A DNA stretch of 64,000 bases from Escherichia coli (lineage in GTDB: Bacteria; Pseudomonadota; Gammaproteobacteria; Enterobacterales; Enterobacteriaceae), in the NCBI RefSeq assembly GCF_044324785.1, contig NZ_CP172127.1; one strand, given 5' to 3'. Positions 2,013 to 40,678 of the stretch are shown here, one piece after another (positions within the stretch are counted from its first letter, which is position 1; the number at the start of each line of letters is the position of its first letter). A program made the position numbers and the translations under genes. The notes beneath the pieces are model-generated. The model made no database searches. It saw only the letters and a list, made by a program, of their open reading frames with translations, and was not told the DNA's origin.

Positions 2013-2147
2013 TGCTTTCTCCACCGGTTGGCTAAGACGTTTTCTGATAAAGACGCTATTTTGTCACAGCCACGGCGAGAATGAACCCGTCTGGTGTAAT
2101 ATCGCTGGCGATCCCTTGCTATATGGTTAAAAAAGGAACCAGAAAGG

Positions 2148-2927
2148 ATGCTTTTTACACTGAAAAAAGTGATTGGCAATATGTTGCTGCCACTTCCGCT
2201 GATGTTGTTGATTATTGGCGCTGGCCTGGCGCTGCTGTGGTTTAGCCGTTTTCAAAAAACCGGGAAGATTTTTATTAGCATTGGGTGGCTGGCGCTCTTG
2301 TTATTGAGTTTGCAACCGGTAGCCGACCGCCTGCTGCGTCCCATCGAAAGCACCTATCCGACATGGAATAATTCGCAAAAAGTGGACTATATCGTGGTGC
2401 TCGGAGGTGGTTATACCTGGAACCCGCAGTGGGCACCAAGCTCGAATTTAATCAATAACAGTCTGCCCCGCCTGAATGAAGGTATTCGCTTATGGCGCGA
2501 AAATCCGGGATCAAAACTGATCTTCACGGGAGGCGTAGCAAAAACCAATACGGTGAGTACAGCGGAAGTAGGTGCCAGAGTTGCGCAATCGCTGGGCGTG
2601 CCGCGCGAGCAAATTATCACCCTGGATTTGCCAAAAGATACCGAAGAAGAAGCTGCGGCAGTGAAACAGGCGATTGGTGACGCCCCTTTCCTGCTGGTGA
2701 CCTCCGCATCACATCTGCCGCGGGCGATGATCTTTTTTCAGCAGGAAGGGCTAAATCCGCTGCCAGCCCCGGCGAATCAGTTGGCCATCGACTCGCCGCT
2801 TAATCCGTGGGAACGGGCAATCCCTTCTCCGGTTTGGTTGATGCATAGCGATCGTGTTGGCTATGAAACGCTTGGCCGCATCTGGCAGTGGCTAAAAGGT
2901 TCGTCAGGCGAGCCACGGCAAGAGTGA
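2148..2927 (+). CDS. elyC: Envelope biogenesis factor ElyC (DUF218)
   Basis: 259-aa ORF with N-terminal TM segment; conserved position between smtA and ycbJ. Confidence 0.85.
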   Translation: MLFTLKKVIGNMLLPLPLMLLIIGAGLALLWFSRFQKTGKIFISIGWLALLLLSLQPVADRLLRPIESTYPTWNNSQKVDYIVVLGGGYTWNPQWAPSSNLINNSLPRLNEGIRLWRENPGSKLIFTGGVAKTNTVSTAEVGARVAQSLGVPREQIITLDLPKDTEEEAAAVKQAIGDAPFLLVTSASHLPRAMIFFQQEGLNPLPAPANQLAIDSPLNPWERAIPSPVWLMHSDRVGYETLGRIWQWLKGSSGEPRQE

Positions 2928-3797
2928 TTTTGATGCCAGATCGAAGTTGCGCCGACTAAATCGTCCGGTATTAACCAGTTGCGCAACTTCATCCCATAAC
3001 ACATACAACCAACGCCGCCAGATGAATGACTCCGCCACTGGCGCGCGTTGCAGGTAACTCCAGAGCAAATCTTCCGCCAGAGAATTATCCATTAGTCGGA
3101 ACAGTTCGTATTCTCGCGGTGCCCAAAGCATTAGTCCCGGCCCGACCATCGCCAGTAACTGATCGCTGCGCGAATCTTTCAGCATGCTGCGTAAACAGAA
3201 GTTACCGTGAATCAGCACACAATTGTCGTTAAAGCCTTCAAATAATGCCGGGAGACATTCGCGAGTACGAAACAGGATCCGCTTATCCTGCATCGTTAGA
3301 CCGGTGTTATTGAACTGATTGAGCGTGGTCCATAGCACTTCAACATGTTGCCGGTACCATGAGGGCCAGAAATTTTCCTGAGTATTGTCGACCGCGCCGA
3401 CGCAACCGCGACTGTCCTGACGGTGCCAGGCCAGTAAGGCTTCAACGATTTGATCTTTGAGTTGTTCCCAGCGTTCTGGTGTTCGGGCTGGTGCCTCCAC
3501 CGAAACACCACGCATCCGCTCCAGTAGCAGGACATCGGGGCCGGGGTGTTCTTCATGCGTCATCACACCATAAATAGTCGGCATACGGACAGTCCCACTT
3601 CTTGCCAGCATGGTGGTTTTCCATGCCAGTTGTCGGGCTTTTCCGGGCGTACTAAAGCTTCTTGCCATTAACGGCATTGGGTTTCCCTGGCTGTCATACA
3701 AAGCCCACAACGCCGTATCCGCTTTTTCATTGACGCACTCAATACGACTGAGTTTCTCGCCCAGTAAATGGCTTAATTCGGCACGCAGCTGTTCCAT
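2904..3797 (-). CDS. ycbJ: Putative kinase/phosphotransferase YcbJ
   Basis: 297-aa ORF; convergent 24-bp overlap with elyC; synteny. Confidence 0.8.
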   Translation of the reverse strand: MEQLRAELSHLLGEKLSRIECVNEKADTALWALYDSQGNPMPLMARSFSTPGKARQLAWKTTMLARSGTVRMPTIYGVMTHEEHPGPDVLLLERMRGVSVEAPARTPERWEQLKDQIVEALLAWHRQDSRGCVGAVDNTQENFWPSWYRQHVEVLWTTLNQFNNTGLTMQDKRILFRTRECLPALFEGFNDNCVLIHGNFCLRSMLKDSRSDQLLAMVGPGLMLWAPREYELFRLMDNSLAEDLLWSYLQRAPVAESFIWRRWLYVLWDEVAQLVNTGRFSRRNFDLASKSLLPWLA

Positions 3798-24467: not shown

Positions 24468-25208
24468 ATGTCAGTTATTGGTCGCATTCACTCCTTTGAA
24501 TCCTGTGGAACCGTAGACGGCCCGGGTATTCGCTTTATCACCTTTTTCCAGGGCTGCCTGATGCGCTGCCTGTATTGTCATAACCGCGACACCTGGGATA
24601 CGCATGGCGGTAAAGAAGTTACCGTTGAAGATTTAATGAAGGAAGTGGTGACCTATCGCCACTTTATGAACGCTTCCGGCGGCGGCGTTACCGCATCCGG
24701 TGGTGAAGCAATCCTGCAAGCCGAGTTCGTTCGCGACTGGTTCCGCGCCTGCAAAAAAGAAGGCATTCATACCTGTCTGGACACTAACGGTTTTGTTCGT
24801 CGTTACGATCCAGTAATTGATGAACTTCTGGAAGTGACCGACCTGGTAATGCTCGATCTCAAACAGATGAACGACGAAATCCACCAGAATCTGGTAGGCG
24901 TTTCCAACCATCGTACACTCGAGTTTGCTAAATATCTGGCGAACAAAAATGTGAAAGTCTGGATACGTTATGTCGTAGTACCTGGCTGGTCTGACGATGA
25001 CGATTCAGCTCATCGCCTCGGTGAATTTACTCGCGATATGGGTAACGTCGAAAAAATCGAGCTCCTCCCCTACCATGAGTTAGGCAAACATAAGTGGGTG
25101 GCGATGGGCGAAGAGTACAAACTCGACGGTGTGAAACCACCGAAAAAAGAAACCATGGAGCGAGTGAAAGGGATTCTTGAGCAATATGGTCATAAAGTGA
25201 TGTTCTAA
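24468..25208 (+). CDS. pflA: Pyruvate formate-lyase activating enzyme (radical SAM)
   Basis: ORF 24441..25208; start at [20 protein letters not shown]; CxxxCxxC motif CLYCHNRD. Confidence 0.95.
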
Positions 25209-25264
25209 AACATCATGTGCAGGCTGAATTCCGACCTGCCACCCCTTCCTTTAGTAGTAAAAAG

Positions 25265-25300
25265 TAAATCAGCGTTGAGAACATGCTCGACGCTGATTTA
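25265..25300. terminator. Bidirectional hairpin between the convergent pflA and bcsC-like genes
   Basis: TAAATCAGCG-N16-CGCTGATTTA inverted repeat. Confidence 0.55.
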
Positions 25301-25342
25301 CTGGATTTAATTTCCGAGTTTTAACCTTCTGATTCTACCTCA

Positions 25343-28300
25343 TTACCAGTCGGCGTAAGGTATCAGCGGCTGCGGCGGTAAATCCATGTCGCCCTGCCAT
25401 CCGGCGGCGGAATACCGCACGTAGAGCAGGAAATGGCTTGGCGCATAATCTTTCGCCTGCTGGATATCAATCGCCGTGCCGACAAACCAGTTGGACGTGA
25501 CGCGACGCTCAAGTAACGCCCGCGCCGTGTAGCCAAAGCCCTGACTGCTGCCGCCGTCGTTGGTCTGACTGGCGGCATCCTCTTTCCAGTCCGTCGGGAT
25601 CAGGTTCATCAGCGGATAACGCGGCATGGTTTTGGTGCGCGAATGCGACCACGAGCCAGACGCACCCAGCTCCCACGACCAGTTTTCCGTCCGCTCCCGC
25701 CACATCACCGGTATGGCAAACGACAGGTATTCCTGCGGGCTGTAGTAACCGCCCTGACCAAGTGAGTAGCCACTCAGGTCTTTGTCGTAATGCCAGATCA
25801 TATTGTTAAGACCAATGGTCACACGGCGATTATTCTGGTTGATGATCTTATAGTAATAGCCCGTCATCCAGCGCACGCGCCAGTTATCTTCGACATTTTT
25901 ACCGGTTAACTGGTCACCGCTAAGCGATGCCCAGACGCCGTTTGCTTCACCTTTATCGTAGCTCAGGCTTAGCCCCACGCCGTCGGCACGCACGCCGCCC
26001 CATTTTTTCCCGGTATTGCTCGGGGAGTCTTTTTGCCCGCCAAAGGCCAGCAAAGAACTGGAGATGGGCCGACGGTGGGCGTTAACGGTGTAACCCAGCG
26101 GCCCGATATCATCGCTGTAACTGATGCCGCCGACCACATCCACCACGTTGAAGCCCATCGGCGTGGTGCCGATATCCCAGCTCCAGACGTCATTTCGCCA
26201 GCCGACCGCCACGCTGGCACCGGAATCCGACTGGCTGCGGTTGCCGCTACAGTCCTGTAATGTACAGGTGCCCCAGTTGTCATCCCATTTGCCATCGGCA
26301 TTAGTGGAGAAACTGCCGACGTTCATATTGACGAAATCACTGCGAAAGAACATCCGCCCGTCAGAGTACGGCGCATCCACCTGCAACATGGTGGTGTGCG
26401 CTTTCAGATCGGAGTAACCACCGGTGCCGCTCGAACCCCAGTAATCGTGCTCGAGGGTGACGTTAAGATCCTGCTGGCGATAGAGGTCCGCTGCATCGCT
26501 GCGCACGCCGCGTTTCAGCCAGTCATCTTTCTCGTCGTTACGGGTCAGCCGGGTAAAGGTGTCGTTATCCTGCGGACGCGTCGTGGTCACACCGGATGCG
26601 ACCATCGCGTCTTTGTAGGTTTCCAGCGCCTGCGTTGGATCGCCCGCCTGCGCTTCAAACTTCGCACCGTCGCGCAGCACCATCGCGCTTTCCATCGACG
26701 GTGGCTGAGATTTTGCCTGCGGGATCAACTTATTAAACGTCTGCTGCGCCGCTGCGGTATCGCCAAGCTGCGCCTGCGCCAGCGCCACGCGCCGCTGAGT
26801 GTTCAGAGAGGCGTTATCAGTGGCGGGCAGTTTCGCCAGCTGGCTACGTGCCGCCGCTTTGTCACCGGCAGCAATATCCACTTCCGTCAGACCAAGAATG
26901 GCATCGGCGTTAGTTGGCTCCCGCGTCAGGACATTCTGATATGCAGCGCGAGCGGCGGTGTAATCACGTCGTTGTTGCGCCCAGTCAGCCAGCGTGAGGT
27001 CAATACGCGAGGAAGGCGGTTGCTGGCGCAGCATCGCTTCCGCTTCTGCCTCTTTGCCGCTTTCTCGCAGGCGATTAGCGGTTTCCAACACCTGATCGCT
27101 TTGCAGTCGATTAACCAGCTCCTGAATATTGCTGCTCCACTGCGCGCGCGGCAGGCTGTTGATATGCGCCAGCGCCGCTCTGTCCTGGTCATGACCAGAG
27201 AGATACAGCCCGTAAGCGTAAACCTGCTCCGGGTCGTTCGGCTTCTGCTGCGCCAGATTGCGCATTAACGTATCGGCCTGGCTGCGTTGTCCGGCCTGCC
27301 AGAGATCCTGTGAAAGTCGGTAAGTAATCCATACACTGCCGGGGTCCAGCGCCAGTCGCTGGCGCTGAAGTGCTGCTGCCTGCGCCCATTTGCCCTGTTT
27401 TTCCAGCGCTTCGGCCTGCTGTGACAAACGGTCATTTTGCAGGCTGCGTTCGATATCATCAATGCTACGCCGCTGACTGGCAGAGAGCGAGGCGATAAAC
27501 GCTTCAGCCTTTTCTGGCGATTGCTGGCGGTATATATTCGCCAGCCCGCGCACGGCGTTAGTGTTGCCGCTGTCCATACGCAAGGTCTGCTGATAATAAC
27601 GTTCGGCGGCGGGATAATCTTTTCGCGCCATCGCCACATCGCCCAGCCCCAGCACTGCATAGCTGTCGGTGTTATCGACATTACGCGCCTGCTGGAACAG
27701 GCGTTCTGCCCGGTCAGGATTATTGGCTTTCAGCGCAGCATCGCCCTGCTGGATCGCCAGCCAGTAGCGGTTTACTTTCAGGAGACTGTTCCATTTGTCG
27801 TTGTTGCTGCTGTGCGGATCCAGGGCGAGGGCTTTTTCCAGATTCGCCACCGCATTGGCGCGATCGCCTTTCTGAGAATACGCCTGGCCCAGCGCTCCAA
27901 ATATGGCACCAGAGTCAGGATTATCAATATTAAGTATTTTCAACTGACGAATCGCTTCGTTGCGACGGGAGGCAATTTGCGTCATTGCCCCCCAGTATTC
28001 CAGCGCCATTTCGATATCTGGCGGTGCACCGTTAAATAGCTTGTCGTAACTGTCGATAGCCTCTTTATGTCGCCCGGAGATAGCTTGTAAGCGTGCCATT
28101 TGCAGTGCCTGACGCCCCTCAGGCGAAGAAAGTCGCATGGCCGTGCGCGATGCTTTATATATTTTTGAATCAGGAGCGAGCAGGGAAAGTCTGGCAAGTT
28201 GTTTTTGCGCGCCTTCAATATCTCCCTTACGCAGCAGATAGCGAAAACGCGCCGCAACGACATCTGGATTATCAGGTTCCGCCAATTCAAGACGATAAAG

Positions 28301-28450
28301 CGACTGTTCGACCAGATCTTCACGATGAATGTCTTCGCCTAACCGAATCTGCGCCATTAACAGCTTGTGTGCAGTTGGTGTGGCTTTCGCCATCGACATT
28401 ACCGCCAAACCAAGGGATATTGTGAGTAAATTTAGGGTGAATTTGTACAT
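25343..28450 (-). CDS. BcsC-like exopolysaccharide export protein: N-terminal TPR repeats plus C-terminal outer-membrane beta-barrel
   Basis: 1035 aa; N-terminal signal peptide; long TPR-like repeat region; C-terminus rich in alternating aromatic/glycine strands and ending in W. Visibly more GC-rich than the genes upstream of it in the cluster. Confidence 0.8.
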   Translation of the reverse strand: MYKFTLNLLTISLGLAVMSMAKATPTAHKLLMAQIRLGEDIHREDLVEQSLYRLELAEPDNPDVVAARFRYLLRKGDIEGAQKQLARLSLLAPDSKIYKASRTAMRLSSPEGRQALQMARLQAISGRHKEAIDSYDKLFNGAPPDIEMALEYWGAMTQIASRRNEAIRQLKILNIDNPDSGAIFGALGQAYSQKGDRANAVANLEKALALDPHSSNNDKWNSLLKVNRYWLAIQQGDAALKANNPDRAERLFQQARNVDNTDSYAVLGLGDVAMARKDYPAAERYYQQTLRMDSGNTNAVRGLANIYRQQSPEKAEAFIASLSASQRRSIDDIERSLQNDRLSQQAEALEKQGKWAQAAALQRQRLALDPGSVWITYRLSQDLWQAGQRSQADTLMRNLAQQKPNDPEQVYAYGLYLSGHDQDRAALAHINSLPRAQWSSNIQELVNRLQSDQVLETANRLRESGKEAEAEAMLRQQPPSSRIDLTLADWAQQRRDYTAARAAYQNVLTREPTNADAILGLTEVDIAAGDKAAARSQLAKLPATDNASLNTQRRVALAQAQLGDTAAAQQTFNKLIPQAKSQPPSMESAMVLRDGAKFEAQAGDPTQALETYKDAMVASGVTTTRPQDNDTFTRLTRNDEKDDWLKRGVRSDAADLYRQQDLNVTLEHDYWGSSGTGGYSDLKAHTTMLQVDAPYSDGRMFFRSDFVNMNVGSFSTNADGKWDDNWGTCTLQDCSGNRSQSDSGASVAVGWRNDVWSWDIGTTPMGFNVVDVVGGISYSDDIGPLGYTVNAHRRPISSSLLAFGGQKDSPSNTGKKWGGVRADGVGLSLSYDKGEANGVWASLSGDQLTGKNVEDNWRVRWMTGYYYKIINQNNRRVTIGLNNMIWHYDKDLSGYSLGQGGYYSPQEYLSFAIPVMWRERTENWSWELGASGSWSHSRTKTMPRYPLMNLIPTDWKEDAASQTNDGGSSQGFGYTARALLERRVTSNWFVGTAIDIQQAKDYAPSHFLLYVRYSAAGWQGDMDLPPQPLIPYADW

Positions 28451-28562
28451 GCCTGCCTCAATCAGGTGTTAACTCACTTTTTATTAAAAACAGAACGGGC
28501 GCAGCTCCCTGCCTGTATAAAGTCAGGACAGAATGGAGCCGCAAAATAGAAATGATGATGAA

Positions 28563-29166
28563 TTACTGTTGATGAGGGTTCAGACGACGGCGACTAATGT
28601 TACGTAACAGACTCCATACTACCCACGCCAATAGCACCACACTGAGAGTTGCCAGCACTGCCAGTAGAATGGGATGTCTGGCTAACACATATTGCACTCG
28701 TTCAATCCAGGGGAGATGCCCAACGTAATAAGTATCTCCAACTCGTAAACTATTGATGCCAGATTCACGAATAACCGCGACTGAACCAAAAATATTGCCG
28801 CGTTTTGTACTATTAATTAACGCATTGTTGAGTAGCGTATCTCCGCGTGATCCCTCGGACATTAAAGCAATTACGCTGCGTTGGGTATGATATGGAGACT
28901 GAAAACCAACTATCGCCGCCATTGGCAATGGAGAATTTATAGTTGTTTGTATTTCAGGTTTTTGATCGTCGTTATCTGTCATAATTTTGGCGTAATCAGA
29001 GTGTCGTATTGGGCTTTTTACCCAACTTGTTGTTGCCTCAATGAGCAGATTAATTTGCTGATTGTCTGCAAATTCTTGCGGAAGTCTTCCTATTAACAGG
29101 ATATCTGAATCCTTGCCCTGGACAGAACCTATATCATCAGTAATTGTCAGATTAATTGCCGGAGAT
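28563..29166 (-). pseudogene. BcsB-like subunit, 3' fragment, separated from its 5' part by IS2
   Basis: Frame is open (no stops, checked codon by codon) from the IS2 junction at 29166 down to the stop at 28563; C-terminal TM anchor HPILLAVLATLSVVLLAWVVW...RRR typical of BcsB. In frame with the 5' fragment once IS2 and one GAGAT copy are removed. Confidence 0.8.
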
Positions 29167-29177
29167 TGGATTTGCCC

Positions 29178-30083
29178 CTATATTTCCAGACACCTGTTAT
29201 CACTTAACCCATTACTGGCCTGCTGCCGCAGATATTCCCGTGGCGAGCGATAACCCAGTGCACTATGCGGATGCCATTCGTTATAATGCTCGAACGCCTC
29301 TGCAAGGTTCTTTGCTGCCGTTAACCCGTCTGGTTTAGGCATGATACTGATGTAGTCACGCTTTATCGTTTTCACGAAGCTCTCTGCTATGCCGTTACTC
29401 TCCGGACTCCGCACCGCCGTGTTCTTCGGTTCAAGCCCCAACATCCGGGCAAACTGCCGTGTTTCATTAGCCCGGTAGCATGAACCATTATCCGTCAGCC
29501 ACTCTACTGGAGACGCCGGAAGCTCGTTGCCGAAGCGGCGTTCCACCGCTCCCAGCATTACGTCCTGTACTGTTTCACTGTCGAAGCCGCCCGTAGTGAC
29601 TGCCCAGTGCAGTGCCTCACGGTCACAGCAGTCCAGCGCGAACGTGACTCGCAGTTTTTCTCCGTTATCACAGCGGAACTCGAACCCGTCAGAGCACCAT
29701 CGTTGATTGCTTTCTTTCACGGCCACTTTGCCAGTATGTGCCCGTTTCGATGGCGGTACAGCGGTTTTTCGCTCAAGCAACAGCGCATTCTGGCGCATGA
29801 TCCGGTAAACACGTTTGGCATTGATCGCAGGCATACCATCAAGTTCGGCCTGTCTGCGAAGCAGCGCCCATACCCGACGATAACCATACGTGGGCAGCTC
29901 TCCGATAACATGGTGTATACGGAGAAGCACATCCGTATCATCTGAGTGACGGCTGCGGCGACCATCTTTCCAGTCATCGGTTCGTCTGAGAATTACGTGC
30001 AACTGCGCACGCGACACCCGGAGACAACGGCTGACTAAGCTTACTCCCCATCCCCGGGCAATAAGGGCGCGTGCGCTATCCAC
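29178..30083 (-). CDS. insD: IS2 transposase OrfB (InsD; DDE integrase domain)
   Basis: 301-aa [33 protein letters not shown]...; overlaps orfA near a T6/A6G slippery run at about 30084-30090. Confidence 0.9.
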
Positions 30084-30406
30084 TTTTTTGCACGCCCGTA
30101 TTCAACGGCTTCTTTAAGGAGTTCATTTTCCATCGTTTTTTTGCCGAGCAGGCGCTGGAGTTCTTTAATCTGCTTCATGGCAGCAGCAAGTTCAGAGGCA
30201 GGAACGACCTGCTCTCCTGCGGCCACAGCAGTAAGACTTCCCTCCTGGTATTGCTTGCGCCAGAGAAATAACTGGCTGGCTGCCACACCGTGTTGCCGGG
30301 CAACAAGGGAGACCGTCATTCCCGGTTCAAAACTCTGCTGAACAATAGCGATCTTTTCCTGTGTAGTACGCCGTCTGCGTTTCTCCGGTCCTAAGACATC
30401 AATCAT
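30041..30406 (-). CDS. insC: IS2 OrfA (InsC; helix-turn-helix)
   Basis: [40 protein letters not shown]... Confidence 0.9.
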
Positions 30407-30497
30407 CTGCTCTCCAATGACTAGTCTAAAAACTAGTATTAAGACTATCACTTATTTAAGTGATATTGGTTGTCTGGAGATTCAGGGGGCCAGTCTA

Positions 30498-32199
30498 GAG
30501 ATCCAGTTTGAGCACCAATCAGTCCAAGGGTATTTAATAATGTTTCAACTTGCGTTGTGCCAGGATTTTCAGGCATAACCACAACCGTTTCTGATAGATC
30601 GGCCATGCGGCTAAATGGAAAGCCTGAGCTGGCAAAAGCGCGTAAATCTGGCATTGCGATAAAGTGATGGTACTTTGAAAAATCGATAGTGGAATCATCT
30701 GCAATAACCGCATGATTTTTTAGCGACCGGGAAATAATACAGCTATCGGCATCAGAGCGCGGCATTGTATTAACGTACTCAAAATTAAATCGCAATTGAT
30801 TAAGCGCCCCTAACGTCAGCGCAGGAATGTTAATTTCATTATTACCATCCAACAATTCTTGCAATAACGGTAAACGTAACAATAACCTATCAGTAGCAGA
30901 TTGCGGACTCAGCCGGAAAGATTCAAGGTACTGGTTATTAAGGCTGACATCCATGCGTGAACCACCTATCGTTGGCGTGGTATAACGATAGTTAATCTTC
31001 ATCTCACCCCCACGATTACGCAATAGAAAGAGATCAGGTGGCAAATTAAATGAAACATTAATTGCCGCAGACTCCAGGGCACTTGCCTGTAACTGCCCTT
31101 CATAATTTTTAAGCTCTGCGAAAGTTACAGGACGATCAGTGCGTATCCAGTTTGGCGCATCATAAGGTTTACGCGGCAGTAACGGCTTCACGTCATTTAC
31201 GACCACGCTATCGCCGCGAAATAATATATTTCCCTGTGCAAGGCCTTTTGCCGCCTGTAATAAATCTTTATCATCGCGGCCCAAAAGTACCAGCAATTTG
31301 ACAAAGGGATTTTGTGGATGACTGATCATTTTAATAACAGGCGCATTCACCAACGGATGCTCGCGCAGAAAGTCTGGGCGTCTATTGTTCGTGGCAAAGA
31401 CTACTGCATTACTTTCCGGTAACTGGTTATAGAAAACCGGAAATCGGTGACCACGCCAGCCAGATTGCGAACCAAACCACGAAGCGACAATAGCTGATAC
31501 CTGCTGCAAACCAGTCCCAGGAGTACCGGCAAAAACCATCGGCAATGTATTAGGGCGGTTATCTCGCGGATCAAAGAACGGTACAGGAAGATATGAAAGA
31601 TCATTTTTCAAATTGAGTCTCTGAACTACCAGTTCAAGTTCACTGGTACGTCCAATATCAAGCCACAAATTGCCGCTGGTCGGGTTTTCGCAGGCGCTCT
31701 GGTAGTGACTAATTAATTCTAGGCGCAAGCGATTAAAATCCGAAAAATACAATGGGTTAAGAGTTATTTCCGCCAGCGTTTTCTTCCCCAGTTGTTCTTT
31801 GGTAATCGGCAATACCTCCATCAACTCGTCATTAAGATAGACCTTAAGCTGTGACTGGACCGGGATCAGCGACGGTGATGGAGTGTATTCAAGTTTTAGT
31901 TTCGCTTCTGACACTATTTCATCGCTACGCATACCAAACTCAATTTGCCCCTGTGGGTTAACTCCATTCAGGACTATGTTTCCTGGCGCTGGTGCGATTT
32001 GTGTAAATGGGAGTTTAAAATAGCGAGATGGCTCTTTCACATAAGCAGAGATATTTTCTTTCGGGATAGCGGGTAATACTCCGACTGAGGAAGGCTTATG
32101 AATTACTGTATCTGTAGCCGATGCTGTATTTGCCTGGTAAAAACATAGTAACCCCAAGCCAATTATTGCAGCACTTAATCTCAAAAATTTTCTTTCCAT
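30498..32199 (-). pseudogene. BcsB-like periplasmic subunit, 5' fragment, truncated by the IS2 insertion
   Basis: ORF 30448..32220 reads into IS2; probable start MERKFLRLSAAIIGLGLLCFYQANTASA (signal peptide); BcsB-like blocks such as EFGMRSDE and LKVYLNDELMEVLP. Confidence 0.8.
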
Positions 32200-32258
32200 T
32201 TTAAAAAATTCAACAACCATAATAAATACAAATAATATATTTAATTAGCAATCAGAAA

Positions 32259-34379
32259 TTAGAACTGACTTTTAGAACTGCCTTTCAGTGTCCGGAGAAT
32301 ATAAAAAACCATATTGCAATAACCTTTCAGAGAGATAAAACATATTTCAATAAAACTCTTTAAAATATTGTCTCGTTTAATTTTATCATTCCACTCTTGC
32401 CATAGTGAATCACGAGAAAACGTTGCTCTGACATAATTAACATTTTGTTCATGACTCATTGGCATAATCTTCAGACCAATTTTATTATTGTAGGCATGAA
32501 CTATTTCTACCGGTATATCACACTTTCCGTTACTATCATCCAGATAAAGAGACAACCGCTGTGTTTTAACAATATTTTTTACGTCGGAGATATTATCAAG
32601 GATAACGCCTAATCCTCCTTCGGAAAAATCAAGAACAGAACAAGGATAGCTCCGTCCATCTTCCAGTTGTATAACGCCCTTGAAAGAAACATCAATACGG
32701 GGAGAAAAACGCACCTGCTTTTGTTCAATAGAAACAGCCAAAGTTGCGCCAATAATAATTGTATTATAAAACAGCCAAATCAAACAAAAAAAATTCAGGA
32801 TGGCGATATGCCCTTGCAAACTATAAACATTAACAATACCTATTATCAGTCCAATTACATTTAAAATGGCAAAAATAAGATAGGGGTAGGAAATTCGCCA
32901 GTCAACAAACTTATTTTTTATCAGCCCTCCTTTGGCCGTAACGTTGAAACGCCCTTTTGCTGGTGCAAGTAAAGCTACAAGAGTTGGTAGCGTAATATAC
33001 CAAGCCAGAACCATTTCATAAATCTCATTCCAGAATGAATGTCTGTATTTACCCTGTACTCTTGAATTAGTTAAAATAATAACAAATAAATAAGGTAAAA
33101 CATAAGACATAATATCTGCAACCGATGCTTCGATCAGGTTGACCGAAAAGAAAATAGGACATAACGGTGCGAACAAGAAAATCAGTCGTGGCACACCTGA
33201 TAAAAAATGCATCATGCTGCTGAGATAGCAAAGGCGCTGTGATAATGTCAGCCCCTTGCCCAATAATGGATTGTCAATACGCAAGATTTGAATCATGCCT
33301 CGAGCCCATCGAATCCGTTGTCCAATATGAGCAGACAATGTTTCTGTGGCTAGCCCGGCAGCCAGAGGATAGCGAAGATATGCAGAGCTATAACCTGCAC
33401 GATGCAAGCGTAACGACGTATGCGCATCTTCAGTTACTGTTTCGACTGCAATGCCTCCAACCTCATCCAGAGCAGATCTACGGATGATTGCACATGAACC
33501 ACAAAAAAATGAAGCATTCCATGTATCCGTACCATTCTGGATTAACCCATAAAAAAGGTGTCCTTCATTTGGCTTTTGCCGAAACTGCCCCAAATTTCGC
33601 TCAAAAGGATCGGGGGAAAAAAAATGATGTGGTGTTTGCAACATCGATAATTTTTTATCTGCAATAAACCAGCCCATCGTTTTCTTTAAAAAAGATACCG
33701 AGGGTATATGATCGCAATCGAAAATAGCAACAAATTCGCCATTAGCTATTTTAAGCGCATTATTTATATTTCCGGCCTTAGCATGTTCATGTGTTTCTCT
33801 TGCGACATAGTAAATTCCTGACTCGTTCGCAAATTTCCTGAACTCATCCCTGGCGCCATCATCAAGGATCCAGATATGTAATTTATCCTTTGGCCAGTCT
33901 AAAGCCAACGCACCATAAACTGTATTCTTCACGACTGTAAAAGGTTCGTTATATGTGGGTATTAATATATCTACGATGGGCCATTCTTCTTTATTCTCTG
34001 GTAAAGGTATACTTTCTCTGTTCAGCGGGAAGCAAACCTGAAAGTAACCAAGTAATAAAACAAACCAAGCATACGTTTCAGCAGTTAATAACGTGACTGA
34101 AAATAAGCAGTCTGGAAATTCATTCAGGATGACTGAAGAAGAGTACCGCCACCATAGATATCGGGATGAGATGAGTATTCCAACACCCATTAATATCAGG
34201 GTAATCATCCTTCCCTTGAACAAATTAAGGAAAATGACAGCGATGCAAATAATAATTGAAAATAATATTTGTTGATAAAATCCAAGTGGCTGCTCAACAA
34301 TTGATAAAAAGACAAAACATAGCAATATAGCAACAACCAAAAGGATTTTGTTTAATATTTCTTTATTTTTTAAGATCAT
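32259..34379 (-). CDS. BcsA-type processive family-2 glycosyltransferase (cellulose-synthase-like) with C-terminal PilZ c-di-GMP receptor domain
   Basis: 706 aa; DDG, DCD, TED and QRIRW catalytic motifs; FFCGS; gating-loop FNVTAK; PilZ RFSPR (RxxxR) and DFSEGG (DxSxxG); multiple TM helices. Very AT-rich DNA. Confidence 0.85.
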   Translation of the reverse strand: MILKNKEILNKILLVVAILLCFVFLSIVEQPLGFYQQILFSIIICIAVIFLNLFKGRMITLILMGVGILISSRYLWWRYSSSVILNEFPDCLFSVTLLTAETYAWFVLLLGYFQVCFPLNRESIPLPENKEEWPIVDILIPTYNEPFTVVKNTVYGALALDWPKDKLHIWILDDGARDEFRKFANESGIYYVARETHEHAKAGNINNALKIANGEFVAIFDCDHIPSVSFLKKTMGWFIADKKLSMLQTPHHFFSPDPFERNLGQFRQKPNEGHLFYGLIQNGTDTWNASFFCGSCAIIRRSALDEVGGIAVETVTEDAHTSLRLHRAGYSSAYLRYPLAAGLATETLSAHIGQRIRWARGMIQILRIDNPLLGKGLTLSQRLCYLSSMMHFLSGVPRLIFLFAPLCPIFFSVNLIEASVADIMSYVLPYLFVIILTNSRVQGKYRHSFWNEIYEMVLAWYITLPTLVALLAPAKGRFNVTAKGGLIKNKFVDWRISYPYLIFAILNVIGLIIGIVNVYSLQGHIAILNFFCLIWLFYNTIIIGATLAVSIEQKQVRFSPRIDVSFKGVIQLEDGRSYPCSVLDFSEGGLGVILDNISDVKNIVKTQRLSLYLDDSNGKCDIPVEIVHAYNNKIGLKIMPMSHEQNVNYVRATFSRDSLWQEWNDKIKRDNILKSFIEICFISLKGYCNMVFYILRTLKGSSKSQF

Positions 34380-34463
34380 TATACTTAGCGATTCATTAAC
34401 AATACAGCTTGAATAGTGTGATTTTTATAAACATTGATGACCAATGCCATGCAAATTTAAATA

Positions 34464-35795
34464 TCAACACCACGTTATCTGTGCTCTGCCATTTTGCTTA
34501 CTTTTGTATAACCGTTCATCTGCCAGCAATTTCAACCGTTCAATGTTATTCATGCACTCATCTGTACTGGCAACTCCTATGCTGCAACTACAATTTAACC
34601 CACCGATTGCGAAATGAACAACTCTGTGCAAAATTCTTGATAGTTTATTTTTATCTTTCTCATAATAAATAATAGCAAACTCATCACCGCCAAACCGGTA
34701 TATTTCCCCTTCACGACGGGGTAACTCATCTTTAATAAGGTTAACAAGTTTGATGAGTACTTCATCACCAAACAGATGGCCAAACTTATCATTAATGGTT
34801 TTAAATTTATCCACATCAAATAGACACAGGTAGCCAAAATTCTTGCTCAGCATCTTGATTTCCTTATCAAAACTCCGACGACCAGAAGCCCGAGTTAATG
34901 CATCACAAGTGCCAAAGTCATATATCTCTCGAATTGCATTAATCTCTTCCGTATTAAAGAATAGATTTTCTCCACATAAATCATATTGATGATTCGATAA
35001 TATAGATTCTTTTTCCAATCTACCCTTATTTATAATATTTCGTAGTAATTTAATATAATAAACATACAGTATAACTGCAGATATTGCCGATGCAAAAACG
35101 AATAGCATACATATATAGAGATATTTACTTTTTTTATAGGCAACAATAAACATCATTTCTGGAAGGTAAGAATACGACAGAGTGATAGCTGACATCTCAA
35201 ATACAGCATCATTTATCAAAAAATCATCACCTGTGATTTTCTTTTCATTATCATTAATATCATAAAATGAGATATAGATATCTTCTCGTTCCCCTGACTG
35301 ATTTCTAATCAAAGATAAATAACGTTCAGGATCTACCACTGATATCAAAATTGTTCGTTTGGCAATGGGATGAGCATAATAAACATAGTACTTATCTTTT
35401 AAACCAATAACACCTCTCTCAAATTCGTTCATTACTCGAATAGAGGAAACTATGTCGCCACAAAAATCATCCCCTTTCGTTGTAACTTTGATACATTTAC
35501 CATCGCTAATAATATAAGGACCGAGATCATACAAATATCCAGGATTTTCATAGCCAGCAAAGCTATTGCGTATTTTTTTTACCAATTCTTCTGGGGCAAT
35601 ATCTAGTTCATAAAATATATCATTAGATACTGAGCGGCGATACTCAGAAACATTAGCTATTGCAAGCCCACTATCTACAATAGATACCTTCACCGAATTA
35701 ATGCGGCCCTTAACATAAATGGTGTATAAATAACAAGTTACTACAGCGACGAACAAAAAACAGATTACTGCCGCCTTTTTCTTATATTTGAACAT
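34464..35795 (-). CDS. Membrane-bound diguanylate cyclase (two TM helices flanking a periplasmic sensor, then GGDEF)
   Basis: 443 aa; intact RFGGDEF active-site motif; no RxxD I-site five residues upstream; about 200-aa periplasmic region containing a Cys pair. Confidence 0.8.
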   Translation of the reverse strand: MFKYKKKAAVICFLFVAVVTCYLYTIYVKGRINSVKVSIVDSGLAIANVSEYRRSVSNDIFYELDIAPEELVKKIRNSFAGYENPGYLYDLGPYIISDGKCIKVTTKGDDFCGDIVSSIRVMNEFERGVIGLKDKYYVYYAHPIAKRTILISVVDPERYLSLIRNQSGEREDIYISFYDINDNEKKITGDDFLINDAVFEMSAITLSYSYLPEMMFIVAYKKSKYLYICMLFVFASAISAVILYVYYIKLLRNIINKGRLEKESILSNHQYDLCGENLFFNTEEINAIREIYDFGTCDALTRASGRRSFDKEIKMLSKNFGYLCLFDVDKFKTINDKFGHLFGDEVLIKLVNLIKDELPRREGEIYRFGGDEFAIIYYEKDKNKLSRILHRVVHFAIGGLNCSCSIGVASTDECMNNIERLKLLADERLYKSKQNGRAQITWC

Positions 35796-35799
35796 TGCT

Positions 35800-38148
35800 T
35801 TATTTTCTTTTTTTCGGTTTGCTGTCTATATGCCATTCTGAAAACGGTAGCGGTTTCTGGTATAAGTATCCCTGAACATGAGAGAATCCTAATTTTTGCA
35901 ATTCTCTGGCCTGACTTTCAGTTTCAACACCTTCAGCTATTACCGGCATATTTTCTTCACGAGCAAGGCTGGATATAAAGTACACAATTTTGTTAGTTTC
36001 GTTGAAAATACCAGAGGTAAACTCTGAATCAATTTTAATACTATCAGGTCTTACTTTATAAAGTTTTTTCAGGTCAGCTAATCCACTACCGAAATCATCA
36101 AGAGAAATCTTGATACCGTTTTCTTTTAAAATGTTTATATTATTGTAAAAGCTATCATTTATATCTTTTACTGCTGACTCGGTGATCTCCAGACAGATTT
36201 GTTCAGCATTTACATCAAATGCATTAATTAAAGTAAGAACACGAGTGTGGAAGTCAATTTCATTTAATTGCCATGGAGAAACATTGATATGCAGGAGAAA
36301 ATCGTTAGCAACCTCATATTCACGGCTAAAGGCACCAAATTCGCTAATAGCCGTTTCGAGAATAAAATCACCCAGTTCTTTAATTAATCCTATTTCTTCA
36401 GCAACAGGTACAAAAATTGATGGCGGTATTGCCCCATTTTCGACGGATAACCAGCGGCATAACGCCTCAGCACCGACAACCCTATTATTATCCATATCAA
36501 CAATCGGTTGATATACTAAATAAAGTTCACTACTCAAAATCGCTTTTTTTATATTTCCTGCCACCCAGACCTTTTGATCAAGTTCATGAACTTTGATATC
36601 ATCATAAAACATAAATTCAGATTCTTTATTTTCCCGCATAGCTGTTAATGCCAGTTTCAACTTCCCTTCATAAATCGAAACATTTTCCCCTGAAAAAGTT
36701 TCACAAATGGCAATCTTATGAATATAAATATTTCTTATGCAAAATATATGTTCAGGGAAGTTTAAAACAGATAATCTTTCGATGAACTCTTCGCAGTGCG
36801 TGTGGCACAGCAACAAGTATGTTTCAGTTGAGAATTTTACGATATCACAATATTTTGAATATTTTTGTGAAATCTTCGATTTTATATCATTAACAATTTC
36901 ATAAAATTTCTGACTTCCATATATCGCCTCAACAAACTCTAATCCATAGATGCAAAGCATACCAACTGCCAAATAGGTTTTATTATTAGTTTCAATAACA
37001 GCCTTATTAATATAGAAACAACTTCCTTGTTCATAGGACACAAGATTAAGTAAACGGTCCATACGCTCCTTGTATTTATCACTGATATTATTAATGATTT
37101 TTTTGAGTTCAACAATTTCGCTACTATCATTTTGCACAATATCAATTGTGTCATTGCGATATACTGAGTTAGCTAATTTTTTCAGATGTTCTATTAGTTT
37201 ACTGGATTCTCGTTTAATTTTTTTTGTTATATTTTCAACGATATACCATAATAAACAGAAACAAACCAAGCCACATAAAAACATCAATGTAAAATATTTA
37301 TTGATGTTTGCATCTTCTGCTTTTTGATAGTAAAAGTAATGGAATCTGACATCAGGAAGCCTGGGGAGTGAGATAATATTGTCTGTATAGTTTCCACTAT
37401 TATTACTTATGTTATAACTTCCCGATGACTCACGGACAATAAGATGTAACATTGATTTTTCATTACCTACCATTATCCTTTTATTTTGTTCCATGAATAG
37501 AATATCAGCATCACTACCTAGTTTATTTAAAAAATTACTGAAATATTTTTCATCAAGATCCAGATGCATTAACTTCAGAGCAAATGAATCTTTTTCTTCT
37601 TCGGATGGCCGTAGTGAAAACGAAAAACATTTTTTTCCGGCAATACCATAACAATTATACCATGGTGACCATTTTGAATAAGTCCCTGCCGGTAATTTAT
37701 TCCAGGGGCGTGATTCCGGGTTAAAGTAGTTATCGCTAATATTACCATCGTCCCCAATAAAAGGTTTGCCGGCTTCTGATTTCCCCAGGAATTTTACCTC
37801 ACCATCCTCAGTTCGAATAAAGCTAAGATAGTTTCCATTATTGAGCATTATCCCTACTAAATTAACAGCGTCTATTTTTTTCATGCGATGAAGGACTGCT
37901 CGCTTTATTTCACCTTCATCATTTAACAGATAAATTGCATCTTTTAATGCATCAGCCTCTTTTTCAACTTTAGAAAAAAAATTATTCAAATTGTTATTGA
38001 TGAGTATAAGGTTAATCCGTGAAGAGTTTTCTGCTATTTTTTTATGGAAGTCAATTGCGGTAATAAATGAAAAGACAATATAGACAGTAACAGCTAATAT
38101 AACCGCAGTGTTAAATCTTGAGTTTAATTTTTCGGTAATGCTATACAT
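35800..38148 (-). CDS. Membrane-bound c-di-GMP phosphodiesterase (periplasmic sensor, degenerate GGDEF-like linker, EAL)
   Basis: 782 aa; EAL-domain residues present (GAEALCRW, QICLEITES, ISLDDFGSG, IKIDSEF, AEGVETE, VQGYLYQKP); no GGDEF motif in the middle domain; two TM helices flank a roughly 250-aa periplasmic region. Confidence 0.8.
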   Translation of the reverse strand: MYSITEKLNSRFNTAVILAVTVYIVFSFITAIDFHKKIAENSSRINLILINNNLNNFFSKVEKEADALKDAIYLLNDEGEIKRAVLHRMKKIDAVNLVGIMLNNGNYLSFIRTEDGEVKFLGKSEAGKPFIGDDGNISDNYFNPESRPWNKLPAGTYSKWSPWYNCYGIAGKKCFSFSLRPSEEEKDSFALKLMHLDLDEKYFSNFLNKLGSDADILFMEQNKRIMVGNEKSMLHLIVRESSGSYNISNNSGNYTDNIISLPRLPDVRFHYFYYQKAEDANINKYFTLMFLCGLVCFCLLWYIVENITKKIKRESSKLIEHLKKLANSVYRNDTIDIVQNDSSEIVELKKIINNISDKYKERMDRLLNLVSYEQGSCFYINKAVIETNNKTYLAVGMLCIYGLEFVEAIYGSQKFYEIVNDIKSKISQKYSKYCDIVKFSTETYLLLCHTHCEEFIERLSVLNFPEHIFCIRNIYIHKIAICETFSGENVSIYEGKLKLALTAMRENKESEFMFYDDIKVHELDQKVWVAGNIKKAILSSELYLVYQPIVDMDNNRVVGAEALCRWLSVENGAIPPSIFVPVAEEIGLIKELGDFILETAISEFGAFSREYEVANDFLLHINVSPWQLNEIDFHTRVLTLINAFDVNAEQICLEITESAVKDINDSFYNNINILKENGIKISLDDFGSGLADLKKLYKVRPDSIKIDSEFTSGIFNETNKIVYFISSLAREENMPVIAEGVETESQARELQKLGFSHVQGYLYQKPLPFSEWHIDSKPKKRK

Positions 38149-39247
38149 ACTGGTGTTCTGACTAAAATGTTATCAATAGCTTTAATATAAGATCGTATAA
38201 AGTTCTGTATATTAGCCGATGTTACCCTCCTCTTTATGACTTTCTTAATTTCATTATCCCCATATAACAAATATGTCATGATGAGAAGATTAATTTTTTC
38301 TTAATTTCCACAAGTGATTATCATGCTTCTTATTTTAACCAGAACAATATTGTTATATGTAACACTCATCTTTGTATCTTTCACCCACGCTACCGCCTTT
38401 CGTTAATCATTCAACGAAATAATTTAGATATGAAAAAATTACCCTGTAACAACACAACTAGCACATCCTGCCGAGTTGTGACATCTACTCTATAATTATC
38501 CAAAAGAGGTATTAGTATCTATTGTCAGTAATCCATTCTGTTTATTTATCTTATTTAAGACATGTGTAATACGACTCTCTTAGCCCAAATATATTAATCA
38601 GTAACTTTAAAGTAAGATTTAGTCAGAAAGTGATCGTGAAAATTTCACTGCCCAGGCTGTAATTTGTCCATCAACCTAACAGATAAATATTTTCAGGAAC
38701 ACACGTTCGATAAAACAATAGATGCAACATTAGAGCACTATTTTATTTTTAAAACAAAAGACTGTGAACTACACCAGGCATGAGAAGATTCTGTCGTGAG
38801 ATGATTTTTTCCAGATTAAAACACTATAAAATATAACTTTTACAGAATATTACGCCAGTAAATCAATATGCCATCTGCATATTCAAACAATAACTGCAAT
38901 CATTCTCAGCAAATTTAACCATAATTAGCAACGTGCAAATTCATTGATGCAGATCAAAAATCCGAGTTTACATTACCAATCTTTGTTGAAAATTTAGCCG
39001 TAAAAATCATGTTATTACTATACGCAAGAGTTTACTCCAGAGCCCAAAATAATAACTTGCAAAATAACCAATAATTAAAACTATCACCATATCTAAAAAT
39101 AAAGGTCTCCGATAACTAAAATTCGTATTATCACGGTAGCGTTGATATTCTTCCATCTCTTAAGAAAAACTTAACTTTTACCCTATCAGGCCTGATCTAA
39201 TTTTAAACTATTTGATATCATAGCCCCGGCGAACCGGGGCATGATGA

Positions 39248-40678
39248 CTATTTTGTATTCGCTTTACGTGCAAGCAGCGGGAATATCAGCCCCAGTCCAA
39301 CGAGGACAAATGGCGTAGTTATGTTCAGTGCCAATTGGAATGTCCACTCTGCAGTGAAGGCTTCCATTTTAGGGAAAATTCCTGTCAGGCAGGCAAAAGC
39401 GGTAAAGGCAAAACACCAAATTCCGACGGTCATTGCCAGCGGCTTATTACGAATAAAGACATATTCCGGCTTATATTTCTGCGCCAGGCGAACAACTGCA
39501 ATAAATGCAACAAATACCCATAAATAACGCAGCGGCATCACTACCGAGTTAAGATTCAACAGCCATTTATAGAGATTGTTCATATCACCAATGCCGAGAG
39601 TCGGCAGCATTATCAGGATCGCCACCAGCACCAGGGTCAGAAAATAGCCATTAACGGGCGTACCAGAAGCGTTGGTACGACATAAACTGGCTGGAATATA
39701 TTTGCTGTCAGCATCGCCTAATAACACTTTAAGCGGCGCATCAATCGAGAATACCAGCGCAGCTACTTGTCCCAGGGTATTCGCAATGGCATAAATCACC
39801 ATTAAAGTATTACCCATGTTGTAATACTCGCCCAGCTTCTGAAAGGCGTAATACTGACCGTTAGTCATTAAGTCATCCGGGATATTACGCGAGTCAAACA
39901 TCATCCCCATCGCCAGTGAGCCCAGAATGGCACAAACCGCAACCATCACCGCCAGACATAACATCCCTTTTGGAAATTCTTTTCCTGGGTTGCGCGTTTG
40001 ATTAACGTAAGGAGAAATCTTCTCTGCTCCGCCAACCGCGAAAACCAGCATTGAAATAGTGGTAATGTAGGTAAAGTCGATATGAGGAATGAACGTTTCC
40101 CAGGTAATGTTTGTGGTCGCAATATGCACTTCAGTAATCGCAGGCGCGGTTACCGCCATCGCCACATACAGGAGCGACATAACAAACATCGCAATCCCTG
40201 CCACAGAACCGACGATTTTCAGCGATTTCATACCGCGTGAAGCAACCCACATAAAGAAGATAAACAGCACCAGCGTTAACCCCTGTAACGCTACGACTGA
40301 ATATTCTTTGATTAGCGAACCGTCGCCTTTCATCGCCCAACCGAGCGCAATCAGTATTGCCTGGGGTTTTTGTGCCAGATAGGGAATATGCACTACCCAG
40401 TAGGTCCACGCGGCGAGGTAAGCCAGTCCGGGTCCCATCGTGTGTTTAATCCAGGTACTGACCCCGCCCTTCCCATCTTTGAAGGTCGAGCCTAACTGAC
40501 CAACAATTAGCGCATAAGGTGTGAAATAGAGCGCAAAGATAAACACCCACGAAAAAACAACCACCAGCCCCTGGTTGGCGTAGTTATTAACAACGTTGCC
40601 AAAACCCCAGACAGTGATAAAAGACATCAGCGCAATGTTGTACCATCGCAGCTGTTTTTCCTGAACATTCCCAGCCAT
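39248..40678 (-). CDS. ycaM: APC-family amino-acid/polyamine transporter YcaM
   Basis: ORF 39248..40870; likely start at the internal MAGNVQEKQLRWYNIALMSF...; polytopic membrane protein. Confidence 0.85.
   Translation of the reverse strand: MAGNVQEKQLRWYNIALMSFITVWGFGNVVNNYANQGLVVVFSWVFIFALYFTPYALIVGQLGSTFKDGKGGVSTWIKHTMGPGLAYLAAWTYWVVHIPYLAQKPQAILIALGWAMKGDGSLIKEYSVVALQGLTLVLFIFFMWVASRGMKSLKIVGSVAGIAMFVMSLLYVAMAVTAPAITEVHIATTNITWETFIPHIDFTYITTISMLVFAVGGAEKISPYVNQTRNPGKEFPKGMLCLAVMVAVCAILGSLAMGMMFDSRNIPDDLMTNGQYYAFQKLGEYYNMGNTLMVIYAIANTLGQVAALVFSIDAPLKVLLGDADSKYIPASLCRTNASGTPVNGYFLTLVLVAILIMLPTLGIGDMNNLYKWLLNLNSVVMPLRYLWVFVAFIAVVRLAQKYKPEYVFIRNKPLAMTVGIWCFAFTAFACLTGIFPKMEAFTAEWTFQLALNITTPFVLVGLGLIFPLLARKANTK

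Follow-up and report, generated by a model that had tools for sequence, protein, structure and literature searches.

Why would a single operon be strongly AT-rich over most of its length and end in a gene whose bulk is richer in guanine and cytosine (GC) than the core genes around it? The question is raised by an accessory cellulose-synthesis island of Escherichia coli (RefSeq assembly GCF_044324785.1, contig NZ_CP172127.1), contained in a 64,000-nucleotide stretch of that contig referred to here as the window. The window holds E. coli DNA around pflB–pflA and ycaM–ycaD, with flanks collinear with those of strain K-12. The island (25209–39248, 14.0 kb) lies between the stop codons of pflA (25208) and ycaM (39249), in place of K-12 ycaN–ycaK; homology to the K-12 pflB–ycaD region stops at 25208 and restarts at 39249 (BLAST). 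Between ycaM and pflA, and away from the core bcs locus, it carries on the minus strand genes for an EAL protein and a GGDEF protein, followed by bcsA, bcsB and bcsC. Carriers make up 9 of 5426 complete E. coli genomes. Chromosomal accessory bcsABC clusters of BcsA3 type have been described in Escherichia (Hosseinpourlamardi et al., bioRxiv 10.1101/2025.05.09.653004), and the window genes are called bcsA3, bcsB3 and bcsC3 here under an assignment discussed below. Comparison of the accessory bcsC with core alleles indicates that the GC break very probably marks a chimeric gene, the 3′ block of which was replaced and then repeatedly converted by core bcsC.

Composition of the locus

A first-pass annotation, made by eye, had described the EAL, GGDEF and BcsA-like genes as strongly AT-rich, the BcsB-like gene as intermediate, and most of the BcsC-like gene (up to roughly 27900) as core-genome-like with a lower 5′ end; it offered either a mosaic origin through a resident bcsC homologue or stepwise amelioration as the cause. 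GC content, GC content at third codon positions (GC3) and a codon index akin to the codon adaptation index were computed across the locus. The reference for GC3 z-scores is the set of 34 core open reading frames (ORFs) of the window (GC3 0.538 ± 0.038), and the codon index was trained on the window's own core genes.

EAL gene: GC 0.330, GC3 0.282, GC3 z-score −6.7
GGDEF gene: GC 0.339, GC3 0.284, GC3 z-score −6.6
bcsA: GC 0.375, GC3 0.332, GC3 z-score −5.4
bcsB fragments: GC 0.43–0.44, GC3 0.34–0.39 (5′ fragment 0.436 and 0.393)
bcsC nucleotides 1–549: GC 0.485, GC3 0.448
bcsC nucleotides 550–3108 (2559 nt): GC 0.585, GC3 0.676, GC3 z-score +3.6

The visual impression of three strongly AT-rich genes is borne out by these values. 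In 1-kb sliding intervals, GC is 0.30–0.36 at 33.5–39 kb, 0.39–0.46 at 30.5–33 kb and 0.57–0.60 at 25.5–28 kb, compared with a mean of 0.508 (s.d. 0.028, maximum 0.577) outside the island. The intermediate standing of bcsB holds for the gene itself, whereas part of the signal at 29–30.5 kb (~0.52) comes from an inserted IS2 element (29167–30497). The bulk of bcsC is indeed GC-rich, with a codon index of 0.749 (core mean 0.721; all AT-rich parts 0.59–0.63), but core-genome-like is not quite the right description, as its GC exceeds the local core mean and matches that of core bcsC (0.571 in K-12). The lower GC of the bcsC 5′ end is equally evident. The locus is thus strongly non-uniform in both sliding GC and codon index, and within bcsC alone the GC3 of the 5′ and 3′ parts differs with a chi-square of 33 (p = 9e-9).

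A core-type block in the accessory bcsC

Alignment with canonical bcsC, with K-12 and the island-carrying genome N3 as references, places a breakpoint inside the gene and bounds a block of 96–97.4% identity. The parts of the gene are as follows.

25343–28450, minus strand: bcsC3, whole gene, 1035 amino acids
25343–27898, minus strand: bcsC 3′ block (gene nucleotides 553–3108), GC-rich and core-derived, by identity to core bcsC
27899–27926, minus strand: recombination junction zone at the TPR linker motif NIDNPDSGAIFG/ALGQ, by nucleotide alignment
27899–28450, minus strand: native bcsC 5′ part with signal peptide and first TPRs, by identity, synonymous divergence and GC

The block comprises 2556 nt that match K-12 bcsC at 96.0% identity (BLAST), with one edge falling precisely on the stop codon; its other edge, at 27898, makes the boundary drawn by eye essentially exact. 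Across the 5426 genomes its identity to core bcsC is 95–99%, with 97.4% for the best core allele, and it is on this identity that the 3′ block is recognized as an E. coli bcsC allele. Elsewhere in the island, nucleotide identity to core bcs genes is ~70% in those portions of bcsA, bcsB and the first ~550 nt of bcsC that can be aligned. For the native 5′ part of bcsC the identity to core bcsC is 69–70% in nucleotides and 66.5% in amino acids, and synonymous divergence per site (dS) from K-12 bcsC is saturated there (at least 1.29) compared with 0.168 in the 3′ block. The transition is abrupt: identity jumps from ~70% to 100% within ~25 nt (gene nucleotides 525–552), coinciding with the step in GC3 from 0.45 to 0.68.

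At the junction, 122 amino acids (366 nt) of core BcsC are absent. BcsC3 matches the NCBIfam BcsC equivalog NF008520 in two stretches (1899.7 bits, cut-off 858), with residues 178–1035 aligning to profile positions 300–1157 and ~122 profile positions absent. Of the accessory protein, 83% is core-derived and ~180 native N-terminal residues are kept. The junction and the 366-nt deletion are common to all five haplotypes, and in each of them a single segment, always this block of 2556–2557 nt, reaches 80% identity to a core bcs locus. Because the boundaries of the block are identical throughout, the junction is ancestral.

Core bcsC also undergoes in-frame losses in its TPR region. A 1027-residue core BcsC (P0172), present on at least 1000 contigs, has an in-frame deletion of ~130 amino acids between the TPR motifs RAALA and RVALA; considered as a possible second chimera, it proved to be a core BcsC with an in-frame TPR deletion. 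This deletion between similar motifs implies that the bcsC TPR region is prone to unequal recombination. It resembles the chimera in the in-frame loss of ~120–130 amino acids between similar TPR motifs, but its deletion removes residues ~551–680 within the core gene, whereas the chimera lacks core residues ~178–299, at the boundary of native and core-derived sequence. Since losses of similar size occur in core BcsC, an unequal TPR–TPR crossover is a plausible origin for the chimera.

Evidence for recurrent conversion

The accessory bcsC of N3 differs from that of the window at 1 nt in 3108, and N3 also has a core bcsC (L005:3611–7084); the core gene of another carrier, 06-00048, was located as well. 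Four runs, of 319, 321, 272 and 240 nt, show 100% identity between the window copy and N3 core bcsC. They span 41–75 sites that are polymorphic in the panel, N3 differs from K-12 within them, and clustered patches of 8–15% divergence lie in between. In a GENECONV-style permutation over 476 polymorphic sites, the shared runs of the window copy and N3 core gave p = 0.0002, with a mean longest run of 26 sites under the null, and the control comparison of K-12 core with N3 core gave p = 0.11.

An accessory copy that tracks the core gene of its own genome or species is seen in 06-00048 and in Escherichia marmotae, and in part in the window lineage, where the core allele of NRZ14408 is slightly closer than that of N3. 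The 06-00048 accessory block is nearest its own core copy (0.964, compared with 0.950 for other core alleles of the panel; p = 0.0006). Over the 222 nt beyond the junction, the accessory gene of E. marmotae matches the core bcsC of its own species at 99.5% and that of E. coli at 90%; its 5′ part is 70% identical to both. The three E. marmotae draft assemblies break 28–220 nt past the bcsC junction, as expected from a ~2.5-kb repeat shared with core bcsC. Among the window, E69 and 06-00048 haplotypes, the 5′ parts are 98.9–99.6% identical and the 3′ blocks merely 93.5–95.6%; near-identical 5′ parts joined to divergent 3′ blocks indicate that the patches arose independently. Together, the 2556-nt block and the N3-identical tracts uphold, for the main break, the suggestion of a mosaic origin through a resident bcsC homologue.

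Other patches of the window block, and its last 225 nt, are still 85–92% identical to core bcsC. A tract can be converted only where it is flanked by homology on each side, and the block's edges would accordingly be the least often refreshed. The window-type terminal 225 nt are 100% identical in the carriers N3 and 06-00048 only and at most 97% identical elsewhere. A transfer of this segment from accessory to core gene was considered and rejected, since no core gene carries it: identity of at least 99% is confined to the two carriers, and the best core allele reaches 96.9%. In N3 core bcsC, a ~265-nt patch (alignment columns 1194–1458) is ~9% divergent from K-12, at a position where the window accessory copy is K-12-like; the patch matches none of the accessory haplotypes examined.

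A proposed history of the block

The patterns described above suggest the following course of events. In the ancestor of all known haplotypes, the last 2.56 kb of bcsC3 would have been replaced by core Escherichia bcsC, through a founding crossover at the TPR linker motif that left the chimera 122 amino acids shorter than core BcsC. Since then, as the tract patterns show, ectopic, non-crossover conversion from core bcsC has overwritten the block in patches, independently in different lineages and species. No other part of the island resembles the core locus closely enough for homologous recombination. In the lineage of the window and N3, the block would now carry variants of that lineage's own core bcsC; overwriting from this source would also account for its core bcsC-like GC (0.58) and codon usage.

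The junction would have stayed fixed owing to a 5′ barrier made up of the 366-nt indel and the adjoining 70%-identical DNA, and on the 3′ side the barrier would be the stop codon, where homology ends. The exchange is likely to be RecA-type homologous recombination without crossover between copies ~2.7 Mb apart. N3 has its core bcsC at 1.20 Mb (plus strand) and its accessory copy at 3.99 Mb (minus strand); with the copies so far apart and on opposite strands, a crossover would invert a large chromosomal segment. As there is no rearrangement and the flanks are collinear with K-12, we infer a non-reciprocal, non-crossover mode. We speculate that the native N terminus has been kept to match BcsB3 and BcsA3.

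An older layer and probable exchange in the opposite direction

A distinct haplotype, typified by MS 21-1, carries a 3′ block with ~88% nucleotide and 93–94% amino-acid identity to Escherichia core BcsC and 80–84% amino-acid identity to Citrobacter and Salmonella BcsC. Its dS to K-12 (0.61) is close to the dS between haplotypes (0.55), and its divergence from core bcsC is uniform along the gene at ~12%. These identity and dS values place the founding of the chimera within the Escherichia lineage, around the time of the haplotype split, and by the same values the MS 21-1-lineage block would not have been refreshed by conversion since then. E. marmotae was considered as the donor of this block and set aside, as the block is 88% identical to the core genes of both E. 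coli and E. marmotae and the best database protein reaches 94%.

Over one 324-nt tract (L011 columns 1711–2034; L003:4042–4365), the MS 21-1-type accessory gene and the core bcsC of strain LR-28 are 100% identical. The tract has sharp edges and is 13% divergent from other core alleles. It is present at 99% identity or more in 91 records, namely 7 island carriers and 84 island-free genomes that have it in core bcsC, including strains named ST648, IMT16316 and MS6198; the remaining genomes reach ~88% at most. Given that MS 21-1-type divergence is uniform along the gene, transfer from accessory to core is the simplest direction, and exchange probably also runs this way.

Alternative explanations

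In place of the resident core gene, the donor could have been incoming DNA, either fragments of other strains' core bcsC brought in by transduction or conjugation, or whole bcsC3 alleles exchanged between strains. The window copy shares longer identical tracts with NRZ14408 core bcsC (385 and 432 nt) than with that of N3 (319 and 321 nt), at 97.4% compared with 96.8% identity, and the island-linked divergence in the pflA 3′ end and ycaM shows the locus itself to move by homologous recombination. We nonetheless regard this source as improbable, because the 06-00048 accessory copy is nearest its own core copy, the E. marmotae accessory copy matches E. marmotae core bcsC, the collapse of draft assemblies at the block is a within-genome pattern, and incoming DNA would be expected to favour the fully homologous core locus far over the accessory copy. 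A single founding fusion of an AT-rich module to a duplicated core bcsC, with no conversion thereafter, agrees with the junction and 366-nt deletion being common to all haplotypes and with the roughly uniform distance of MS 21-1 from core alleles. It is very unlikely to be the whole history, however: 240–432-nt runs of complete identity beside patches of 85–92% do not fit uniform divergence, the 3′ blocks of the haplotypes differ by 4–6% where the adjacent 5′ parts differ by 0.4–1.1%, and the 99.5% identity of the E. marmotae copy to the conspecific core gene would be left unexplained.

Stepwise amelioration or codon selection, with the bcsC end of an imported operon drifting faster towards host composition, was the other cause proposed by the first-pass annotation, and the monotonic rise of GC along the operon and the host-like codon index of the 3′ block (0.749) are what it would predict. 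The change is abrupt rather than gradual, the switch taking place within ~25 nt; GC3 in the block (0.68) overshoots the core mean (0.54); and the same structure recurs in haplotypes separated by a dS of 0.5–0.7. Nor can amelioration yield 96–100% identity to a paralogue that extends to synonymous sites (dS 0.17, compared with at least 1.3 in the adjacent 5′ part), so we consider it extremely improbable and discard it. Mis-joining of two bcsC copies in the assembly of the window genome is hardly credible either. A 2.56-kb near-repeat does break short-read assemblies, but the same structure occurs with continuous flanks in independent complete genomes (N3, 06-00048, seven of MS 21-1 type and E69), the block is identical to no core allele (97.4% at best), and the terminal 225 nt are accessory-specific.

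Several points weigh against recurrent conversion from the resident gene. The window genome's own core bcsC falls outside the window and is represented by the N3 allele, which is 96.8–96.9% identical to the window block overall, slightly less than the 97.4% of NRZ14408 core bcsC; with NRZ14408 nearer than N3, the donated sequence may have come from an ancestral resident allele or from incoming DNA. A scan of genome contigs for BcsA3 gave one further Escherichia locus, E69, and no unconverted, fully native bcsC3, so that the original fusion is inferred and not observed. A third, unsampled donor could have supplied the 324-nt tract. According to the preprint text, BcsB and BcsC cluster concordantly with BcsA (10.1101/2025.05.09.653004). 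Conversion leaves the GC gradient among the non-converted genes unexplained.

The residual GC gradient

Outside the block, a weaker gradient runs from the EAL gene through the GGDEF gene, bcsA and bcsB to the bcsC 5′ end, with GC rising from 0.33 to 0.485. The gradient noted by eye within the operon is therefore real, but this weaker part of it is explained by neither of the two causes then proposed. Amino-acid identity to the core paralogues climbs alongside GC (40, 42, 53, 66 and 66.5%), and the same pattern recurs in every chromosomal haplotype as well as in the plasmid bcs2 cluster described below. GC also varies among the K-12 paralogues (pdeI 0.416, dgcI 0.435, bcsA 0.554, bcsB 0.549), which makes the residual gradient partly gene-intrinsic. 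Older conversion in bcsA3 and bcsB3 was considered as a cause and dropped, as neither gene contains a segment at least 80% identical to core bcsA or bcsB in any of the five haplotypes. The residual gradient is an ancestral property of the cluster family, only partly explained, and not the product of amelioration in the window genome.

Other genes of the island

The island and its remaining features are listed below.

25209–39248, no strand assigned: accessory island with BcsA3-type bcsABC (type assigned by exclusion) and PdeI/DgcI-like genes, delimited by BLAST against the K-12 pflB–ycaD region
28563–29166, minus strand: bcsB3 3′ fragment, downstream of IS2, collinear with intact N3 bcsB
29167–30497, minus strand: IS2, 1331 bp, interrupting bcsB3; empty site in N3, NCBIfam matches to TnpA and TnpB
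30498–32199, minus strand: bcsB3 5′ fragment; start taken from the N3 annotation, with an upstream in-frame ATG at 32220
32259–34379, minus strand: bcsA3, 706 amino acids, short form, NCBIfam NF008558
34464–35795, minus strand: GGDEF diguanylate cyclase gene, DgcI/YliF-like, 443 amino acids, TIGR00254 GGDEF domain
35800–38148, minus strand: EAL phosphodiesterase gene, PdeI/YliE-like, 782 amino acids, EAL-family NCBIfam matches
38149–39247, no strand assigned: AT-rich non-coding leader upstream of the operon, GC ~0.31, no ORF of 100 or more amino acids

The EAL protein is 40% identical to K-12 PdeI over 775 aligned residues, both proteins having 782 amino acids, and the GGDEF protein is 42% identical to K-12 DgcI over its full length; its E. 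marmotae orthologue consists of GAPES2 and GGDEF domains. BcsA3 scores 1014 bits with NF008558 (cut-off 992), covering profile positions 148–836 of 872. At 706 residues, compared with 872 in the core protein, it lacks two parts of core BcsA1, namely the C-terminal tail and the ~150-residue extension at the N terminus, and its close homologues carry PilZ and GT2 Pfam domains (precomputed). It is 53% identical to K-12 BcsA. In a protein search, relatives of at least 73% identity came from Escherichia alone, followed by ordinary enterobacterial BcsA at 51–56%; BcsA3-type members in public sequence collections number several hundred.

The bcsB3 5′ fragment encodes a product 66% identical to K-12 BcsB; intact N3 BcsB has 766 amino acids and scores 1168 bits with the NCBIfam BcsB equivalog NF008325. 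The IS2 element between the two fragments, of the IS3 family, has terminal repeats TGGATTTGCCCC and TAGACTGGCCCC and is flanked by a 5-bp target duplication (GAGAT), with N3 providing the empty site. Its two reading frames (GC 0.51 and 0.55) match NCBIfam TnpA (276 bits) and TnpB (706 bits), both above the cut-offs. Because IS2 splits bcsB3, the accessory operon is probably inactive in the window strain, and the insertion is likely to be polar on bcsC3.

The window and N3 are 99.7–99.9% identical over a 17.7-kb region, and apart from IS2 their islands are 99.9% identical; the sole other indel between them is an in-frame one of 9 nt in the GGDEF gene, which encodes 446 amino acids in N3 (L001:10420–11760) and 443 in the window. 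The MS 21-1-type haplotype differs from that of the window by ~15% along the island, with dS of 0.52–0.74 and a ratio of nonsynonymous to synonymous divergence (dN/dS) of 0.06–0.14, and these low ratios indicate that all island genes are under purifying selection. The leader (38149–39247) is the most divergent stretch between haplotypes, at 68–73% identity to the MS 21-1 type; promoter and regulatory sequences presumably lie here, and the stretch is a possible H-NS target. Divergence between haplotypes extends into the flanks, with 88% identity to MS 21-1 in the pflA 3′ end (24800–25208) and 92–97% between haplotypes in the island-proximal 3′ part of ycaM (39249–39900), remoter flanks being at least 99% identical. 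Evidently, island alleles have been swapped through homologous recombination within these flanks.

In E. marmotae, the island is present at the same locus in three draft assemblies (L013:14601–15372, L014:14601–15244 and L015:14601–15180). With 40–66% amino-acid identity to the core paralogues, the island represents an old, AT-rich accessory module for cellulose synthesis, confined to Escherichia.

Relation to known systems

The window cluster shares with the BcsA3-type cluster, as described in the preprint (10.1101/2025.05.09.653004), a short BcsA together with BcsB and BcsC and the lack of bcsZ, bcsQ, bcsE, bcsF and bcsG, and likewise a chromosomal position off the core bcs locus, beside YliE/YliF-like EAL and GGDEF genes, and confinement to Escherichia. 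From the sequences, assignment to the BcsA3 type was made by exclusion, and not by comparison with the representative HDP8224287.1: BcsA2, in the form of the S56 plasmid protein, is 72% identical to the window protein, and BcsA4 is Klebsiella-like in that account. Unlike the cluster as presented there, the window's has a BcsC of which 83% derives from the core gene, with which it evolves in concert, and the window copy of the cluster is additionally interrupted by IS2. The text of the preprint mentions neither GC content nor recombination nor chimeras.

A comparable arrangement is found in the BcsA2-type cluster of E. coli S56 plasmid pA (p0111-type phage-plasmids; 10.1101/2025.05.09.653004). 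This bcs2 cluster (L007:10130–21052) has the same order of AT-rich EAL, GGDEF, bcsA and bcsB genes, with GC of 0.30, 0.33, 0.40 and 0.476 (the EAL gene, at 0.30, being a fragment), and like the window it ends in a GC-rich, core-type bcsC (GC 0.57). It differs in that the core-derived block of 3585 nt consists of a 121-nt bcsZ 3′ remnant and the whole of bcsC, 97% identical to K-12, and in having a group II intron and an IS200 element between bcsB and bcsC; in the window, only the 3′ 2556 nt are core-derived and the native 5′ end is kept. Between the two clusters BcsA is 72% and BcsB 63% identical in amino acids. By alignment, the plasmid bcsC is a whole-gene capture of core bcsC. Core-type bcsC occurs on 127 plasmid records, in many of them beside IS1, IS3-family elements and a truncated tdh.

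Concerted evolution of dispersed paralogues by RecA-dependent gene conversion is established for tufA and tufB in Salmonella and E. coli and for the ribosomal RNA operons. The accessory bcsC shares with tufA/tufB-type conversion the non-reciprocal tracts of a few hundred nucleotides between distant copies, the mosaic identity and the species-specific homogenization. It departs from that system in pairing a core gene with a rare accessory island, in limiting exchange to part of the gene and in having a junction fixed beside 70%-identical DNA. A literature search for bcsC gene conversion or a ycaM-linked cellulose synthase found nothing relevant. The cluster itself has been known since 2025, but there appears to be no earlier report of its chimeric bcsC, of concerted evolution with core bcsC in two species or of the reverse tract in core genes.

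Implications

A broader reading that joins these observations is possible, although we consider it rather unlikely in full. Exchange would run both ways, and the junction would be a module boundary, with the first ~180 residues of BcsC, its N-terminal TPRs, being cluster-specific, for example in docking to BcsB3 and BcsA3, and the part from core residue ~300 onward, comprising the other TPRs and the beta-barrel, being generic and shared. A rare island (0.2% of genomes) would in this manner write divergent tracts into a core biofilm gene of successful lineages (84 ST648-type genomes), and bcs3 and bcs2 modules would habitually parasitize the export channel gene of the host.

The GC break is settled as a matter of recombination and not of amelioration. 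Paralogue gene conversion is well known, and the present locus is an instructive new case of it, not a new principle. The breaks of short-read assemblies at the locus are explained. Phylogeny and typing based on bcsC are affected, as the accessory copy will group with its host, and the core allele in ~1.5% of complete genomes has an accessory-type tract. The operon was reported in 2025 as coherent and horizontally transferred as a unit, yet most of its export gene derives from the core, and that gene is still homogenized with the host copy. The findings suggest which portion of BcsC can be exchanged between cellulose secretion systems.

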